64,000 bases of DNA from Escherichia coli (GTDB lineage: Bacteria; Pseudomonadota; Gammaproteobacteria; Enterobacterales; Enterobacteriaceae). The stretch lies in the NCBI RefSeq assembly GCF_002854065.1, contig NZ_CP024147.1. The stretch is one strand, 5' to 3'. The notes beneath the pieces are model-generated. The model ran no database searches. It saw nothing but the letters and a program-made list of their open reading frames with translations, and was not told where the DNA came from. Position numbers and translations under genes: made by a program. Within the stretch, counting starts at the first letter, position 1; every line of letters begins with the position of its first letter. Below, piece by piece: positions 25,898 to 45,492 of this stretch.

Positions 25898-28800
25898 ATG
25901 AACAAAATATTTAAAGTAATCTGGAATCCGGCGACGGGCAGTTATAGCGTTGCCAGCGAAACGGCGAAGAGCCGTGGTAAGAAATCTGGTCGCAGTAAGC
26001 TGTTAATTTCTGCACTGGTTGCGGGTGGAATGTTGTCGTCGTTTGGGGCAAATGCCAGTGCGACACTTGATGGAGGTTCATCTATTGAAGACCCATCAAT
26101 GGGTACTCGCTGGCTTGCAATCGGTGAGGGCGCAAAAGCAACATCCGCGTTACAAGGTGATGGATATACCGTTGCGATAGGGCTTAATGCACTAGCAGAT
26201 GGTCAGGGTAGTCTTGCATTCGGCTACGATACCCACTCATCGGGTGATCGTTCTATCTCTATTGGCCAATATGCTGAATCCGCAGGAAACAGAACCATTG
26301 CTTTCGGTAGTGGGTCCAAGGCAATAGGAGACTATTCGCTTGCATTAGGAGGAACTACCTATACAGGTGGTGACTACTCCATTGCAGTGGGTAGGGATTC
26401 GAGGGTAGAAGACGATGCTGATTACGCCTCCTCTTTTGGTTACGGCGCCAAGGCAGGCGGGGTCTATAGCATGGCATTCGGTTTCGAAACTAAAGCTAAT
26501 GCCGTTGACAGCCTGGCAATGGGACGACTAGCTACAGCCAGTGCAGCAAACGCTATTGCGATAGGTGCAGAGGCTGAAGCCGCTGAAAATGCGATGGCTA
26601 TTGGCAATAATGCGAAGGCAAAAGGGACTAATAGCATGGCAATGGGGTTCGGAAGCCACGCCGATAAAGTCAATACTATCGCATTAGGAAATGGCAGCCA
26701 GGCTCTGGCAGATAATGCAATCGCCATAGGCCAGGGCAACAAAGCTGATGGCGTGGATGCCATCGCTCTGGGTAATGGTAGCCAGTCGAGAGGCTTAAAC
26801 ACCATTGCCTTAGGCACAGCCAGTAATGCAACTGGTGATAAGAGTCTTGCGCTTGGTAGTGATACCACTGCCAACGGTATTAACTCCGTCGCATTGGGTG
26901 CAGGTTCCACTGCGGATTTAGACAATACCGTCTCTGTCGACAATAGTTCATTAAAACGCAAGATCGTTAATGTGAAAAATGGCGCGATCAAGTCTGACAG
27001 TTACGATGCCATTAATGGTTCACAGCTTTATGCCATTAGCGACTCGGTAGCACAAAGGCTTGGGGGAGGATCATCAGTAGATGTTGATGACGGTACTGTT
27101 ACAGCACCAACCTACAATTTAAAAAATGGTAGCAAAAAGAACGTAGGGGCTGCGCTCACTGTACTTGATGAAAACACCCTGCAATGGGACCAAATCAAAG
27201 GCAAATACAGCGCTGCTCATGGTACTAGTAGCCCAACTGCCAGCGTAATCACCGATGTTGCGGATGGCACGATTTCAGCCTCCAGTAAGGAGGCGGTTAA
27301 CGGCTCCCAACTGCAAGCTACCAATGACGATGTTGAGGCCAACACCACCAATATCACCAACCTGACGGATTCCGTTGGTGACCTTCAGGCTGATGCCCTG
27401 CTCTGGAACGAAACTAAAAAGGCATTCAGTGCAGCTCACGGCCAGGATACCACCAGCAAAATCACCAACGTTAAAGATGGCGACCTGACGGCTGGCAGCA
27501 CTGATGCCGTTAACGGCTCTCAGCTGAAAACCACCAACGATGCTGTGGCGACGAATACCACCAATATCGCCAATAACACTTCCAATATTGCCACTAACAC
27601 CACCAACATCTCTAACCTGACTGAGACGGTGACTAACCTTGGTGAAGATGCGCTGAAATGGGATAAGGACAATTGTGTCTTCACGGCAGCTCATGGCACC
27701 GATGCCACCAGCAAAATCACCAATGTTAAAGATGGCGACCTGACGGCTGGCAGCACTGATGCCGTTAACGGCTCTCAGCTGAAAACTACCAACGATGCTG
27801 TGGCGACGAATACCACCAATATCGCCAATAACACTTCCAATATTGCCACTAACTCCACCAACATCTCTAACCTGACTGAGACGGTGACTAATCTTGGTGA
27901 GGATGCTCTGAAATGGGATAAGGACAATGGTGTCTTCACGGCAGCTCACGGCACCGAGGCCACCAGCAAAATCACCAACGTTAAAGATGCCGACCTGACG
28001 GCTGACAGCACCGATGCCGTTAACGGCTCTCAGCTGAAAACCACCAACGATGCCGTGGCGACGAATACCACCAATATCGCCACTAACACTTCCAATATTG
28101 CCACTAACACCACCAACATCTCTAACCTGACTGAGACGGTGACTAACCTTGGTGAAGATGCGCTGAAATGGGATAAGGACAATGGTGTATTCACGGCAGC
28201 TCACGGCACAGAAGCCACCAGCAAAATCACCAACGTTAAAGATGCCGACCTGACGGCTGGCAGCACTGATGCCGTTAACGGCTCCCAGCTGAAAACCACC
28301 AACGATGCTGTGGCGACGAATACCACCAATATTGCCACTAACACCACCAACATCTCTAACCTGACTGAGACGGTGACTAATCTTGGTGAGGATGCGCTGA
28401 AATGGGATAAGGACAATGGTGTATTCACGGCAGCTCATGGCAACAACACCGCCAGCAAAATCACCAATATCCTGGACGGCACAGTCACTGCAACCAGTTC
28501 CGATGCCATTAACGGCAGCCAGCTTTATGACTTAAGCAGCAATATCGCCACCTACTTCGGCGGCAATGCTTCTGTGAATACTGACGGTGTGTTTACCGGT
28601 CCAACCTACAAAATCGGTGAAACAAATTATTATAACGTCGGCGATGCACTGGCTGCGATTAACTCCTCATTTAGCACGTCTCTCGGCGATGCCCTGCTTT
28701 GGGACGCTTCCGTAGATAAATTTAGTGCCAAACACGGTACTAATGGTGACGCAAGCGTGATCACTGATGTCGCAAACGGGGATGTTTCAAGCACAAGCTC

Positions 28801-31111
28801 TGATGCTGTGAACGGCTCGCAACTCTATACCACCAATAAGTACGTCGTAGATGCGCTGGGTGGTGGTGCCGAAGTCAATGCAGACGGCACCATCACTGCG
28901 CCGACGTACACCATTGCTAATGCTGATTACGATAACGTCGGTGATGCCCTGAACGCCATCGACACCACTCTCGATGATGCTCTGCTCTGGGATACGGACG
29001 CCGGTGAAAATGGTGCATTTAGCGCCGCTCACGGAAAAGATAAAACTGCCAGTGTAATCACTAACGTCGCAAACGGTGCAATTTCCTCCACCAGCAGCGA
29101 TGCTGTTAACGGCTCACAACTCTATACTACCAATCAGTACATAGTCGATGCGCTGGGTGGTGACGCAGAAGTTAACGCTGACGGCACCATCACCGCACCG
29201 ACTTACACCATTGCGAATACCGATTACAACAACGTCGGTGACGCCCTGGATGCGCTTGATGATAACGCCCTGCTGTGGGATGAGACTGCCAATGGCGGTG
29301 CAGGAGCCTACAATGCCAGCCATGACGGTAAAGCCAGCATCATCACTAATGTCGCTGATGGCAGTATTAGTGAGGACAGCACCGATGCAGTGAACGGTTC
29401 TCAGTTGAATGCGACGAATATGATGATTGAGCAGAACAGCCAAATCATCAATCAGCTTGCTGGTAATACCGACGCAACCTATATCGAAGAAAATGGCGCT
29501 GGTATCAACTACGTTCGTACTAACGACAACGGTTTAGCCTTTAACGATGCAAGCGCCTCTGGTGTCGGCGCTACAGCTGTAGGTTATAACGCTGTCGCGT
29601 CTGGTGCCAGCAGCGTAGCCATTGGTCAGAACAGCAGCAGCACCGTTGATACCGGTATTGCGCTGGGTAGCAGCTCCGTTTCCAGCCGTGTAATTGCCAA
29701 AGGTTCTCGTGACACTAGCGTAACGGAAAATGGCGTGGTGATTGGTTATGACACCACTGACGGCGAACTGCTAGGTGCATTGTCAATTGGTGATGACGGT
29801 AAATACCGCCAAATCATCAACGTAGCTGATGGTTCAGAAGCCCATGACGCCGTTACGGTTCGTCAGTTGCAGAACGCTATTGGAGCGGTCGCCACTACGC
29901 CAACCAAGTACTTTCACGCCAACTCAACGGCAGAAGACTCACTGGCCGTTGGTGAAGACTCGCTGGCAATGGGTGCGAAAACTGTCGTTAATGGTAATGC
30001 AGGTATTGGTATCGGTTTGAACACTCTGGTTCTGGCTGATGCGATCAACGGCATTGCTATCGGCAGTAACGCACGCGCAAACCATGCAAACAGTATTGCA
30101 ATGGGTAACGGTTCTCAGACCACCCGTGGTGCACAGACTGGCTACACCGCCTACAACATGGACGCACCGCAGAACTCTGTAGGTGAGTTTTCTGTTGGTA
30201 GTGAAGACGGTCAACGTCAGATCACCAACGTCGCAGCTGGTTCAGCGGATACCGATGCGGTTAACGTGGGTCAGTTGAAAGTCACTGATGAGCGCGTAGC
30301 GCAAAATACCCAGAGCATTACTAACCTGAACAATCAGGTCACTAATCTGGATACTCGCGTTACTAATATCGAAAACGGTATTGGCGATATCGTGACCACC
30401 GGTAGCACCAAGTACTTCAAGACCAACACCGATGGCGTAGATGCCAACGCCCAGGGTAAAGATAGCGTTGCGATTGGTTCTGGTTCCATTGCTGCCGCTG
30501 ACAACAGCGTCGCACTGGGTACAGGCTCCGTGGCCAACGAAGAAAACACGATCTCTGTGGGTTCTTCTACCAACCAGCGCCGTATCACCAACGTAGCTGC
30601 CGGTGTTAATGCCACCGATGCGGTTAACGTGTCGCAGCTGAAATCTTCTGAAGCAGGCGGCGTTCGCTACGACACCAAAGCTGATGGCTCTATCGACTAC
30701 AGCAACATCACTCTTGGTGGTGGCAACGGAGGTACGACTCGCATCAGCAACGTTTCCGCAGGTGTGAACAACAACGACGCGGTGAACTACGCGCAGTTGA
30801 AGCAAAGCGTGCAGGAAACAAAGCAATACACCGATCAGCGCATGGTTGAGATGGATAACAAACTGTCTAAAACTGAAAGCAAGTTGAGCGGGGGTATCGC
30901 TTCTGCAATGGCAATGACCGGTCTGCCGCAGGCTTACACTCCAGGTGCCAGCATGGCTTCTATTGGTGGCGGTACTTACAACGGTGAATCGGCAGTTGCT
31001 TTAGGTGTATCGATGGTGAGCGCCAATGGTCGTTGGGTCTACAAATTACAAGGTAGTACCAATAGCCAGGGTGAATACTCCGCCGCACTCGGTGCCGGTA
31101 TTCAGTGGTAA
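25898..31111 (+). CDS. upaG: trimeric autotransporter adhesin (YadA-like; UpaG/EhaG/SadA family)
   Basis: 1737-aa ORF; extended signal peptide [27 protein letters not shown]...; repetitive head/neck/stalk motifs; C-terminal YadA-type anchor (...[15 protein letters not shown]...[38 protein letters not shown]). Position between yibL and lldP fits what I recall for upaG/ehaG/sadA. Confidence 0.85.
27392..28390 (+). repeat. in-frame tandem repeats inside the adhesin gene (255-bp / 85-aa unit)
   Basis: Units start at 27392, 27647, 27902 and 28157 (the last 21 bp shorter); a degenerate fifth starts at 28391. Units are more than 95% identical by eye ([29 protein letters not shown]...TNLGE). Confidence 0.85.
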
Positions 31112-42247: not shown

Positions 42248-43207
42248 TTGTTTCCATTTCGTCGTAACGTTCTTGCATTTGCCGCTCTGTTGGCGCTCTC
42301 CTCCCCCGTAATTGCTGGCAAACTTGCCATCGTCATTGATGATTTTGGGTATCGCCCGCACAACGAAAACCAGGTGCTGGCGATGCCTTCCGCTATCTCC
42401 GTCGCTGTATTACCCGATTCACCGCACGCCAGAGAGATGGCGACCAAAGCGCATAACAGCGGTCACGAAGTGTTGATTCATCTCCCGATGGCACCGTTGA
42501 GTAAACAGCCGCTGGAGAAAAATACGCTACGCCCGGAGATGAGCAGCGACGAAATTGAGCGCATTATTCGTAGTGCGGTCAATAACGTGCCCTATGCCGT
42601 GGGGATCAACAACCACATGGGCAGCAAGATGACCTCTAACCTGTTTGGTATGCAGAAAGTGATGCAGGCGCTGGAGCGTTACAATCTTTACTTCCTCGAC
42701 AGCGTAACCATTGGTAATACCCAGGCGATGCGCGCCGCGCAAGGCACTGGCGTGAAGGTTATTAAACGGAAGGTGTTCCTCGACGATTCACAGAACGAAG
42801 CGGACATCCGTGTGCAGTTCAATCGCGCAATTGATCTGGCGCGTCGCAACGGTTCAACCATTGCCATTGGGCATCCTCACCCTTCAACGGTACGCGTGCT
42901 ACAACAGATGGTTTATAACCTGCCGCCAGACATTACGCTGGTAAAAGCCAGCAGCTTGCTGAATGAACCGCAGGTTGATACGTCTACACCGCCGAAAAAC
43001 ACTGTGCCCGACACACCGCGTAATCCGTTCCGTGGCGTGAAGCTGTGCAAACCGAAGAAACCGATAGAACCTGTTTATGCTAATCGCTTCTTTGAAGTAT
43101 TAAGCGAAAGCATCAGCCAGAGCACGCTGATCGTTTACTTCCAGCATCAGTGGCAAGGCTGGGGCAAACAGCCCGAAGCGGCGAAACTTAACGCTAGCGC
43201 AAATTAA
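42248..43207 (+). CDS. yibQ: divergent polysaccharide deacetylase family protein
   Basis: 319-aa ORF with N-terminal signal/TM; directly follows envC. Confidence 0.85.
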   Translation: MFPFRRNVLAFAALLALSSPVIAGKLAIVIDDFGYRPHNENQVLAMPSAISVAVLPDSPHAREMATKAHNSGHEVLIHLPMAPLSKQPLEKNTLRPEMSSDEIERIIRSAVNNVPYAVGINNHMGSKMTSNLFGMQKVMQALERYNLYFLDSVTIGNTQAMRAAQGTGVKVIKRKVFLDDSQNEADIRVQFNRAIDLARRNGSTIAIGHPHPSTVRVLQQMVYNLPPDITLVKASSLLNEPQVDTSTPPKNTVPDTPRNPFRGVKLCKPKKPIEPVYANRFFEVLSESISQSTLIVYFQHQWQGWGKQPEAAKLNASAN

Positions 43208-44228
43208 AGGCGCTACGCGTAATGCGATGGTGCGACCGCGTTTTGTCGCGCCATTGCCATAAGCGGAAAGACCACAGTAACGCCTGGTAACCCACCTTCA
43301 CGCTGCGCACATTGGTAATCAGGCGCTTATACATACCGGAAGTAAATATCTCGGCAATCATCCGTTGGCGGGTAAGAATATCCGGCTCTTTGCGCACCGC
43401 ATGGCAAACACGCAATGCTTCGTAAGTTATTTGCTGATGAAATTCCGGATAAATCGTAATTTTGTCGGCATAATTTCGATTTAATTTCTCCAGCAGGCGG
43501 GTAATCTTAATATAGTGACGTTGATAATTAAGGTTTTTATTCCCTTGTCTATGCAACCGACTCACTGACGTATTATGCAGATAATATTTATATAATGATT
43601 GCTCGGTATATCGCGCACGCAGCGCATTAAACATGAATTCTGTTGTCCAGACAATATCCTGATGATGTAATCCGGCAATAAATTTAATGTTATTTTTAAC
43701 AATAACATCGCGGCGATAAACCCCCATCCAGACAACGTGAGTCCAACGGCGCGAAGAAAGCCCCATCCGCAGCCAGTCCGGGCCGGTTAAGACACCGGTT
43801 GAGCGAAGGCGATCGCTGGGGATGGATTGCCAGGTTTCTCCCGTTTCACGAAAACACCAGTCAGCGTTGCACTGCGCCACGTCGAGGTCGTCCTCTAACG
43901 CCATGGTCATCAGCGTTTCGTACATGGTGGGATAGACTTCATCGTCAGCATCGACAAAAGCGACATATTTGCCCGTTGCCACTTCAATCCCACGATTACG
44001 CGCCACCGATGCGCCAGCATTCGCCTGATGCAACAAACGAACGTGCGGATAGTTTTCTGCGTAATGCTTTGCTATTTCAACAGAATTATCCGTTGAACCA
44101 TCGTTAATAATAATGATTTCCAGAGCAGTCCAGGTTTGCGTAATTAAAGATTCCATACAAGTGCGGAAATCATCGCCCGCATTATATAACGGAATAATAA
44201 CACTAAGTTTATTGGTGCTGTTCATCAT
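43194..44228 (-). CDS. waaH: family 2 glycosyltransferase (LPS core modification)
   Basis: 344-aa ORF; GT2 signature (SVIIPLYNAG...VAFVDADD). Confidence 0.85.
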   Translation of the reverse strand: MMNSTNKLSVIIPLYNAGDDFRTCMESLITQTWTALEIIIINDGSTDNSVEIAKHYAENYPHVRLLHQANAGASVARNRGIEVATGKYVAFVDADDEVYPTMYETLMTMALEDDLDVAQCNADWCFRETGETWQSIPSDRLRSTGVLTGPDWLRMGLSSRRWTHVVWMGVYRRDVIVKNNIKFIAGLHHQDIVWTTEFMFNALRARYTEQSLYKYYLHNTSVSRLHRQGNKNLNYQRHYIKITRLLEKLNRNYADKITIYPEFHQQITYEALRVCHAVRKEPDILTRQRMIAEIFTSGMYKRLITNVRSVKVGYQALLWSFRLWQWRDKTRSHHRITRSAFNLR

Positions 44229-44435
44229 AAATTACCGACAACCTCTGAAGTTATCCTGACGTTTTACAGGCTTTGTATTAAGAAACTATTAAGCCTGTGA
44301 GATATTCTTTTTACAGGTGAGAGAGTCACTTCAGGGTAGAGAGATAATGAGAGCAGCTATATAAGAGATCAGCACAATTACGAACTCTTTATTACACTGA
44401 CAGGATTTTACATATTTAACAGATTATCCTCAGAT

Positions 44436-44462
44436 AAAAGGGCTGGAATACCAGCCCTTGTT
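44436..44462 (-). terminator. rho-independent terminator after tdh
   Basis: Minus-strand aagggctgg-tatt-ccagccctt followed by TTTATCTG, just past the tdh stop. Confidence 0.6.
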
Positions 44463-44466
44463 CGTG

Positions 44467-45492
44467 TTAATCCCAGCTCAGAATAACTTTCCCGGACTGG
44501 CCCGAACGCATAGCGTCAAAGCCCTTCTGGAAATCATCGATAGAGAAACGATGGGTAATGATCGGCGAGAGATCGAGGCCAGACTGAATCAGCGCCGCCA
44601 TCTTGTACCAGGTTTCAAACATCTCACGACCGTAAATGCCTTTAATGAACAAGCCCTTAAAGATCACTTTTGTCCAGTCTATCGACATGTCAGAAGGTGG
44701 AATACCCAGCATCGCAATGCGACCGCCGTGGTTCATGGTGTCGAGCATGGTACGAAACGCTGGCGGCGCACCAGACATTTCCAGACCGACATCAAAGCCT
44801 TCGGTCATGCCTAACTCCGCCATCACGTCATTGAGATTTTCTTTGGCGACGTTAACCGCACGGGTGATACCCATTTTACGCGCCAGCTCAAGGCGGTATT
44901 CATTAACATCCGTGATCACCACGTTGCGTGCACCAACGTGTTTCGCCACCGCCGCAGCCATGATACCTATCGGCCCTGCACCAGAGACCAGCACATCCTC
45001 GCCAACCAGATCGAACGACAGCGCGGTATGCACGGCGTTACCGAAGGGATCAAAAATGGAAGCTAGGTCGTCGGAGATATTGTCTGGGATTTTGAAGGCG
45101 TTGAACGCCGGGATCACCAGATATTCGGCGAAGCAGCCCGGACGGTTAACGCCGACGCCGATCGTGTTGCGGCACAGATGGGTACGACCGCCACGACAGT
45201 TGCGACAGTGACCGCAAGTGATATGGCCTTCGCCAGAAACGCGATCGCCAATCTTGAAGCCTTTCACTTCCTGACCAATACCTACCACTTCACCGACATA
45301 TTCATGGCCCACGACCATCGGCACCGGGATGGTTTTTTGCGACCACTCATCCCAGTTATAGATGTGAACGTCAGTCCCGCAGATGGCTGTTTTACGGATT
45401 TTAATCAGCAGATCGTTATGCCCGAGTTCCGGTACAGGAACGTCGGTCATCCAGATGCCCTCTTCCGCTTTCAGTTTGGATAACGCTTTCAT
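44467..45492 (-). CDS. tdh: L-threonine 3-dehydrogenase
   Basis: 341-aa ORF; zinc-ADH family (…GHEYVGEVV…, [18 protein letters not shown]). Confidence 0.95.

Follow-up and report, generated by a model that had tools for sequence, protein, structure and literature searches.

Regulation of the waaH gene (yibD) by PmrA/BasR, QseB and the Pho system has been described before, and bioprocess engineers already use its promoter as a switch that responds to phosphate depletion. The consensus CTTAA-N5-CTTAA was derived from motif instances at known targets of PmrA, yibD being one of those listed (PMC1525208). PmrA~P and QseB~P shift the yibD promoter of UPEC, in which ferric-iron induction requires pmrA (PMC5677524), and Salmonella yibD was upregulated 69-fold on overexpression of PreA/QseB (PMC2653508). 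With respect to phosphate, Pi starvation raised waaH expression 81-fold in O157:H7, and a comparison for PhoB dependence gave 15-fold (PMC3978041). In an APEC pst mutant, yibD was upregulated 46-fold, whereas basRS and eptA were downregulated 1.7-fold in the same mutant (PMC2648988), so BasR activation does not by itself explain the response to phosphate. An engineered promoter, 'modified yibDp', provides tight phosphate control and autoinduction on phosphate depletion (bioRxiv 10.1101/2020.01.26.920280).

PhoB binds the waaH promoter in vitro, as determined by EMSA (bioRxiv 10.1101/536201; PMC12351708). However, PhoB ChIP-seq and earlier ChIP-chip gave no signal upstream of waaH, from which the authors inferred indirect control, and RNA-seq in the same study confirmed the PhoB-dependent positive regulation of the gene (PMC10294691). 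The ChIP was done with a tagged PhoB that was impaired about 8-fold (PMC10294691), and ytfK was also missed, so the negative ChIP result at waaH is not decisive. Whether PhoB acts directly, through degenerate boxes, or indirectly is an existing disagreement in the literature, and no new finding of this work. Direct binding of PhoB at waaH (yibD) was reportedly claimed from a footprint by Yoshida et al. 2011, who are said to have studied ytfK alongside waaH and to have reported two pho boxes for ytfK.

Here, we analyzed a 64-kb stretch of E. coli DNA (hereafter the window), in which the region upstream of waaH contains two copies of the 9-mer TTTTACAGG. A preliminary description, made from the sequence alone, had put these repeats forward as the only obvious candidate regulator site. 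We suggest that the repeat is probably a coincidence within the known waaH (yibD) promoter, with its copies lying in different working parts, and that the core of the promoter would be formed by a PmrA/BasR-type box and a predicted -10 hexamer. The functional parts are all already known from described systems, namely the PmrA/BasR box, the architecture of the Pho regulon and the tdh terminator. The gain is a map of the promoter that places the box, the predicted -10, the two weak Pho-like boxes in tandem and the natural variants, and this map explains why a sequence-only reading met no canonical Pho box.

The waaH promoter and its PmrA/BasR-type box

The genes that delimit the control region and the features between them are listed below, with positions in the window.

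43194–44228, minus strand: waaH (yibD) coding sequence, 344 aa (open reading frame and RefSeq annotation)
44254, minus strand: predicted transcription start, from promoter geometry only, about 7 nt after the hexamer and giving a 5' UTR of about 26 nt
44261–44266, minus strand: predicted -10 hexamer TAAAAC, inferred, 10 bp downstream of the box
44262–44270, minus strand: proximal copy of CCTGTAAAA, exact match, at predicted -16 to -8, overlapping the predicted -10 hexamer
44277–44293, minus strand: PmrA/BasR-type box CTTAATAGTTTCTTAAT, CTTAAT-N5-CTTAAT with an 11-bp period, at predicted -39 to -23
44309–44317, minus strand: distal copy of CCTGTAAAA, exact match, at predicted -63 to -55
44247–44385, minus strand: native part of 'modified yibDp', 139 bp (supplement sequence and primers, bioRxiv 10.1101/2020.01.26.920280)
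44431–44459, minus strand: tdh intrinsic terminator, hairpin AAGGGCTGG-TATT-CCAGCCCTT followed by a T-rich tail
44467–45492, minus strand: tdh (RefSeq E. coli annotation), stop codon at 44467–44469

RefSeq annotates the ORF as waaH in 5,423 of 5,426 complete E. coli genomes, the product being UDP-glucuronate:LPS(HepIII) glycosyltransferase, and the identity given to it in the preliminary description is borne out. The waaH control region is bounded upstream by the tdh terminator. Both 9-mers lie within the 238-bp tdh-waaH gap, and the native 139 bp of 'modified yibDp' includes both of them together with the PmrA box.

Two E. coli strains differ at the level of the gene itself. In O157:H7 Z1825, waaH is annotated as a frameshifted pseudogene (L056, 393–571 and beyond). 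WaaH is reported not to add glucuronic acid in O157 LPS, and the frameshift may be related to this absence. In strain ET650 (NZ_CP100936.1), the match to the query was limited to 72 nt at the tdh end, which suggests that the waaH promoter, and perhaps the gene too, has been deleted or replaced.

The sequence CTTAATAGTTTCTTAAT is a perfect PmrA/BasR box located between the two copies of the 9-mer, and a search of the window that tolerated one mismatch returned no other match. The pattern YTTAAK-N5-YTTAAK was absent from both 9-mers and was found between them, at 44277–44293. We compared the upstream regions of orthologous waaH loci fetched from 54 genomes. In the 18 non-coli sequences, the two CTTAAT half-sites had identities of 0.95 and 0.91, versus a regional mean of 0.50. 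The box was nearly invariant in about 20 species of 12 genera, with variable flanks, and it was present in 18 of 21 species, at 47 to 54 bp from the ATG. The repeats cannot therefore be considered the only obvious candidate regulator site, since a perfect and deeply conserved PmrA/BasR box sits between them.

A hexamer beginning with TA was found exactly 10 bp 3' of the box in all 18 box-bearing species. It reads TAAAAC in E. coli and TATAAA in Salmonella, with TACAAC, TAGAAA, TAAGAT, TAAAAA and others elsewhere. In the E. coli hexamer, the T at -12 and the A at -11 are both conserved (18/18), a C occupies -7, and the usual T at the last position is missing in most species. The conservation and the fixed position relative to the predicted -10 that would be expected of a PmrA box were both found at 44277–44293. 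These observations point to a predicted arrangement in which the box would stand in the -35 position, followed by a weak -10 (TAAAAC) and a start near 44254. This start is compatible with the functional 'modified yibDp', in which the sequence is native down to 44247. A simple consensus promoter scan of the window allele, including the upstream sequence, reported no promoter, an outcome to be expected of an activator-dependent promoter.

We are fairly confident that the proximal 9-mer belongs to this predicted -10 region, plus four spacer bases. In the 18 non-coli promoters, the proximal copy had a mean identity of 0.66, with the GTA..A columns nearly invariant across genera, and its moderate conservation, concentrated in these columns, is explained by its lying mostly in the predicted -10 region.

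Weak PhoB-like boxes and the phosphate response

A PhoB weight matrix was built from 59 ChIP-seq site sequences (PMC10294691) and used to scan the window. The ChIP-bound sites scored 6.6 to 23.2 bits (median 14.9), and the best score in the waaH-tdh gap was 6.7 bits, comparable to the weakest ChIP site (6.6). With such a maximum, the lack of a canonical CTGTCAT tandem, already pointed out in the preliminary description, is borne out. The best match in the gap fell not on the repeats but on the PmrA box: the 18-mer CTTAATAGTTTCTTAATA at 44276–44293, scoring 6.73 bits, is the PmrA box itself. A further match overlaps the distal copy.

44298–44315, minus strand: weak Pho-box-like 18-mer TGTAAAAAGAATATCTCA, which is TGTAAAAATAATATCTCA in most E. 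coli

This distal 18-mer precedes the PmrA box by 22 bp (2 × 11), a distance that keeps the two in phase, and scored 4.4 bits in the window allele, 6.9 bits in the K-12 allele and 5.1 bits in the B2 allele. The TGTAAAA word of the distal copy is its first half-site (6.0 bits) and the start of an A/T-rich tract; the second half-site is poor (-0.75 bits). In the 139-bp minimal promoter of K-12, two matches of at least 4 bits were found, TGTAAAAATAATATCTCA (6.86) and CTTAATAGTTTCTTAATA (6.73), both on the gene strand. Two same-strand matches in 11-bp phase occurred in 0.5% of shuffles, a P value (~0.005) that is optimistic, as the region was seen first. In the orthologous promoters, the distal 18-mer was not kept as a Pho box outside Escherichia.

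As candidates for PhoB, the repeats were therefore sustained in one part and not in the other: the distal copy starts one of the two weak 18-mers, but an 18-mer begun at the proximal copy has a score of -6.5 bits. A Pho box consists of two direct repeats of 7 bp resembling CTGTCAT, with a period of 11 bp and a 4-bp A/T-rich spacer, and it takes the place of the -35, its end about 10 bp from the -10. The pair of 9-mers does not form such a repeat, given its 47-bp spacing and the score of the proximal 18-mer, and neither copy fits the position. That position is occupied by the CTTAAT-N5-CTTAAT box, with its 10-bp spacer to the predicted -10, TAAAAC.

Two other PhoB matches were observed. A conserved upstream block, TGTAATAAAGAGTTCGTAATTG (44375–44396, minus strand), scores 6.0 bits in E. 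coli. Its counterpart in Citrobacter, Pseudocitrobacter and Kosakonia (L049, L003, L013, L027) is TGTCATAAAT..TTCGTAAT, the best PhoB match there (8.6 to 11.7 bits), about 100 to 145 bp upstream of the PmrA boxes. The first half of this block is deleted in 'modified yibDp', which still responds to phosphate. The strongest PhoB match of the window, TGTAACAGTACCGTCATC (16.5 bits; 27086–27103, minus strand), lies inside an ORF of 1,737 codons (25898–31111) and is of the intragenic kind found in the ChIP-seq study.

In the reading that we favor, the core of the promoter would be a direct-repeat site for response regulators of the OmpR/PhoB family, the PmrA/BasR box, occupying the -35 region. The weak -10, TAAAAC, would follow 10 bp downstream, the proximal copy corresponding to that region plus four spacer bases. 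The distal copy would sit some 60 bp 5' of the predicted start, where its TGTAAAA would open the A/T-rich, degenerate Pho-box-like 18-mer. Most E. coli would then carry two tandem weak PhoB-type boxes, with the box-to-(-10) geometry of pstS, phoA and phoE. The sequence, its conservation and geometry, the matrix scores and the published regulation are the observed part of this reading; we infer the start site, the role of the hexamer as a -10 and the use of both boxes by PhoB. It is plausible that a weak upstream Pho box takes its first half-site from the distal copy, a proposal to which we give slightly less than an even chance; otherwise, this copy would be part of an A/T-rich tract.

A more tentative and, in our view, rather unlikely extension is that the CTTAAT-N5-CTTAAT box of waaH is a docking site shared by PmrA/BasR, QseB and PhoB, at which PhoB would bind weakly and cooperatively via the distal 18-mer. 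If true, this would explain how waaH can rank with the genes most strongly induced by phosphate starvation and bind PhoB in vitro, but show no peak in ChIP-seq. The phosphate response would then also be expected to vary with the allele, in the order K-12 type, B2 type and then the G allele of the window.

Indirect control by PhoB is a serious alternative for the phosphate response, although we consider it unlikely. PhoB would not bind the promoter in vivo, the response would be due to another factor or to cross-talk onto the CTTAAT box, and the distal copy would be part of an A/T-rich, UP-like tract or functionless. The distal subsite of an UP element (an alpha-CTD site) is an A/T-rich tract at about -57 to -47. 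The tract AAAAATAATAT, AAAAA(G/T)AATAT, at predicted ~-58 to -48, may resemble this subsite, and its placement would be consistent with such a role. The matrix scan found no strong Pho box in the gap, and the CTTAAT box is demonstrably used by PmrA and QseB/PreA. PhoB gave no ChIP-seq or ChIP-chip signal despite significant PhoB-dependent expression (PMC10294691), but this signal was sought with the impaired tagged protein (about 8-fold), and ytfK, with a box of 10.8 bits, was missed too. In addition, PhoB binds in vitro by EMSA (bioRxiv 10.1101/536201; PMC12351708), BasR is not the mediator, as basRS and eptA are down in the pst mutant, and two weak boxes in phase, at the canonical spacing from the predicted -10, are unlikely to occur by chance.

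The 9-mer repeat and its natural variants

Exactly two matches to TTTTACAGG were found when both strands of the 64-kb window were searched, at 44262–44270 and 44309–44317 on the plus strand, confirming that the repeat described initially is exact. They read CCTGTAAAA on the waaH coding strand, with a spacing of 47 bp, and lie 34–42 and 81–89 nt 5' of the waaH ATG (44228), near the 40–90 bp first given. An exact direct repeat of at least 9 nt occurred in 15.6% of 5000 dinucleotide-preserving shuffles of the 238-bp intergenic region and in 16.8% of the real 238-bp tiles of the window. With a chance probability of about 0.16, the TTTTACAGG repeat alone is no evidence of function. The 47-bp spacing (4 × 11 + 3, about 4.5 helical turns) matches no 11-bp register of a response regulator, and it places the copies on opposite faces of the helix, out of the PhoB register.

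The TGTAAAA word is found three times on the coding strand of the 238-bp gap, versus 11 times in the whole window (both strands). Its third occurrence in the gap (44406–44412, minus strand) lies within ATATGTAAAATCCTGTCAG, in the upstream part that was removed from the engineered promoter to delete an NsrR repressor site (bioRxiv 10.1101/2020.01.26.920280). A second direct repeat, CTCTCTCACCTG / CTCTCTACCCTG, is present on the coding strand at 44314–44325 and 44332–44343, with an 18-bp spacing. It lies in a CT-rich stretch directly upstream of the distal copy and is kept within Escherichia only.

The 71-bp core containing both copies and the box was identical to that of K-12 in about 4,141 of the 5,426 E. 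coli genomes, and the distal copy was CCGGTAAAA in about 1,270 to 1,370 of them (the UM146/B2 allele); these counts, obtained by BLAST identity bands, are approximate, and the classes overlap by about 100 genomes, probably partial alignments counted as 100% identical. The strain of the window has a G at 44307, versus a T in K-12 and most E. coli. Its exact 71-bp allele was found in 10 of the 5,426 genomes, and the distal 18-mer drops from 6.9 to 4.4 bits. In one ETEC strain, the proximal copy is CTTGTAAAA. E. coli O111:H8 1056-1 (L059, ~313–336) has a 12-bp tandem duplication of TGTAAAAATAAT, which creates an extra TGTAAAA word and pushes the upstream sequence 12 bp further from the box. In E. 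coli LCP22S3_I2 (L062, 1–100), an IS1 lies directly upstream of CTCACAGG-CTTAAT and replaces the distal copy and all upstream promoter sequence, thus constituting a natural test of the need for the distal region. The box and the hexamer were invariant in every sequence examined in these population data. The repeat, therefore, did not hold up as a conserved feature: the distal copy is altered in about a quarter of the E. coli genomes, and the 9-mer repeat is not kept outside E. coli.

Joint conservation is lacking, and this, together with the 47-bp spacing and the natural variants, argues against the use of both copies by one regulator. According to such an explanation, both CCTGTAAAA copies would bind PhoB or an unknown downstream factor and jointly provide phosphate control. 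The copies are indeed exact, the minimal phosphate-inducible promoter includes both, each TGTAAAA has a PhoB half-site score of 6.0 bits, and the word is concentrated on the coding strand of the gap (three occurrences, versus 11 in the window on both strands). However, a chance repeat of this length is expected in about 16% of similar regions, and the copies are on opposite faces of the helix and out of the PhoB register. Moreover, the proximal 18-mer scores -6.5 bits, and an activator bound on the predicted -10 would block RNA polymerase. The distal copy had a mean identity of 0.41 in the 18 non-coli promoters, below the regional mean of 0.50, it is CCGGTAAAA in some 1270–1370 of the 5426 E. 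coli genomes, and it is shifted or removed by the 12-bp duplication and the IS1 insertion. The two 9-mers thus fail as a pair, the proximal one overlapping the predicted -10 and the other lying 4 × 11 + 3 bp (about 4.5 helical turns) away, and we consider their joint use highly improbable.

A structural role of the CCTGT/ACAGG words was also considered, in view of an inverted repeat that brackets the PmrA box.

44266–44273 and 44291–44298, no strand assigned: 8-bp inverted repeat ACAGGCTT / AAGCCTGT, bracketing the PmrA box

The downstream arm of this inverted repeat is the CCTGT of the proximal copy. The words follow one another as distal CCTGT, middle ACAGG and proximal CCTGT. That they form alternative hairpins round the box, in DNA or in a leader RNA transcribed from a promoter further upstream, with the repeat serving the pairing, is hardly credible: other genera have other arms in the same place (CAGCCTT/AAGGCTG, GTGGCT/AGCCAC, CGCGCT/AGCGCG) and the mean longest stem was 4.9, versus 3.8 ± 0.2 in shuffles, but this shuffle test overstates the significance because the species are related, the pairing is missing in close relatives (L001, L002, L014), the RNA fold of the region is unexceptional (z = -1.3), the best Rfam hit was a snoRNA with an E-value of 0.46, so that no family matched, the consensus scan found no promoter-like site upstream, and transcription from the predicted start, at about 44254, would not include the repeat.

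Several other candidates were rejected. A leader RNA or riboswitch was discarded on the basis of the Rfam result (snoRNA, E-value 0.46) and the fold z-score (-1.3). A pairing of an upstream CTGAAGT with ACTTCAG close to the ribosome-binding site was dropped, as inspection of the alignment by eye showed that the nearest Escherichia relative lacks compensatory changes. A separate constitutive promoter built on TAATAT of the distal tract reached at best 8 of 12 positions by eye (GTGACT-16-TAATAT), and the consensus scan reported none in the window allele. Readings of CCTGT/ACAGG as sites of the LexA (CTGT-N8-ACAG), CRP, ArcA or PhoP type were set aside because the spacings do not fit, as judged by eye against consensus sequences.

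Comparison with the Pho and PmrA/BasR promoters

The promoter of ytfK resembles that of waaH in its PhoB-dependent expression and its negative ChIP-seq result (PMC10294691), and its half-sites, of the GGTAAA/TGTAAC type, are akin to those of waaH. Unlike waaH, ytfK has a box nearer to the consensus, TGTAACCTTTAGGTAAAA, which scores 10.8 bits with the PhoB matrix and is located well upstream of the likely -10, and it has no PmrA box. A hidden-regulator motif common to TGTAAAAAGAATATCTCA of waaH and GGTAAAAAGATAATTCTGA of ytfK was rejected, as the real box of ytfK and this word are out of register by 2 nt, and a local alignment of the waaH and ytfK promoters yielded nothing above chance.

The classical Pho promoters pstS, phoA and phoE have a 10-bp spacing from box to hexamer, and the -10 of phoE, TAAAAA, is similar to the predicted TAAAAC of waaH. 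Like the Pho promoters (pstS, phoA, phoE, phoB), waaH has 11-bp direct repeats, a box ending 10 bp before the predicted -10 and no -35, and, like pstS, it has two tandem boxes. Half-sites of the TGTAAx form are also present in bona fide PhoB sites, for example TGTAATAAAAGCGTAAAC of phoE (ChIP-seq list). However, the waaH 18-mers score 6.7 to 6.9 bits, versus a median of 14.9, and are silent in ChIP-seq, and the proximal box matches the consensus of another regulator.

With the PmrA/BasR promoters (Salmonella pmrC/yjdB, pbgP/yfbE and ugd; E. coli eptA and arnB), characterized by the box YTTAAK-N5-YTTAAK, waaH shares a perfect CTTAAT-N5-CTTAAT with an 11-bp period, located in the -35 region, 10 bp before a predicted weak -10. 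Indeed, yibD is itself a published member of the PmrA/BasR regulon, on the basis of its motif, EMSA and ferric-iron induction. Unlike the other BasR targets, it is strongly induced by phosphate starvation in a PhoB-dependent manner, whereas basRS and eptA are downregulated.
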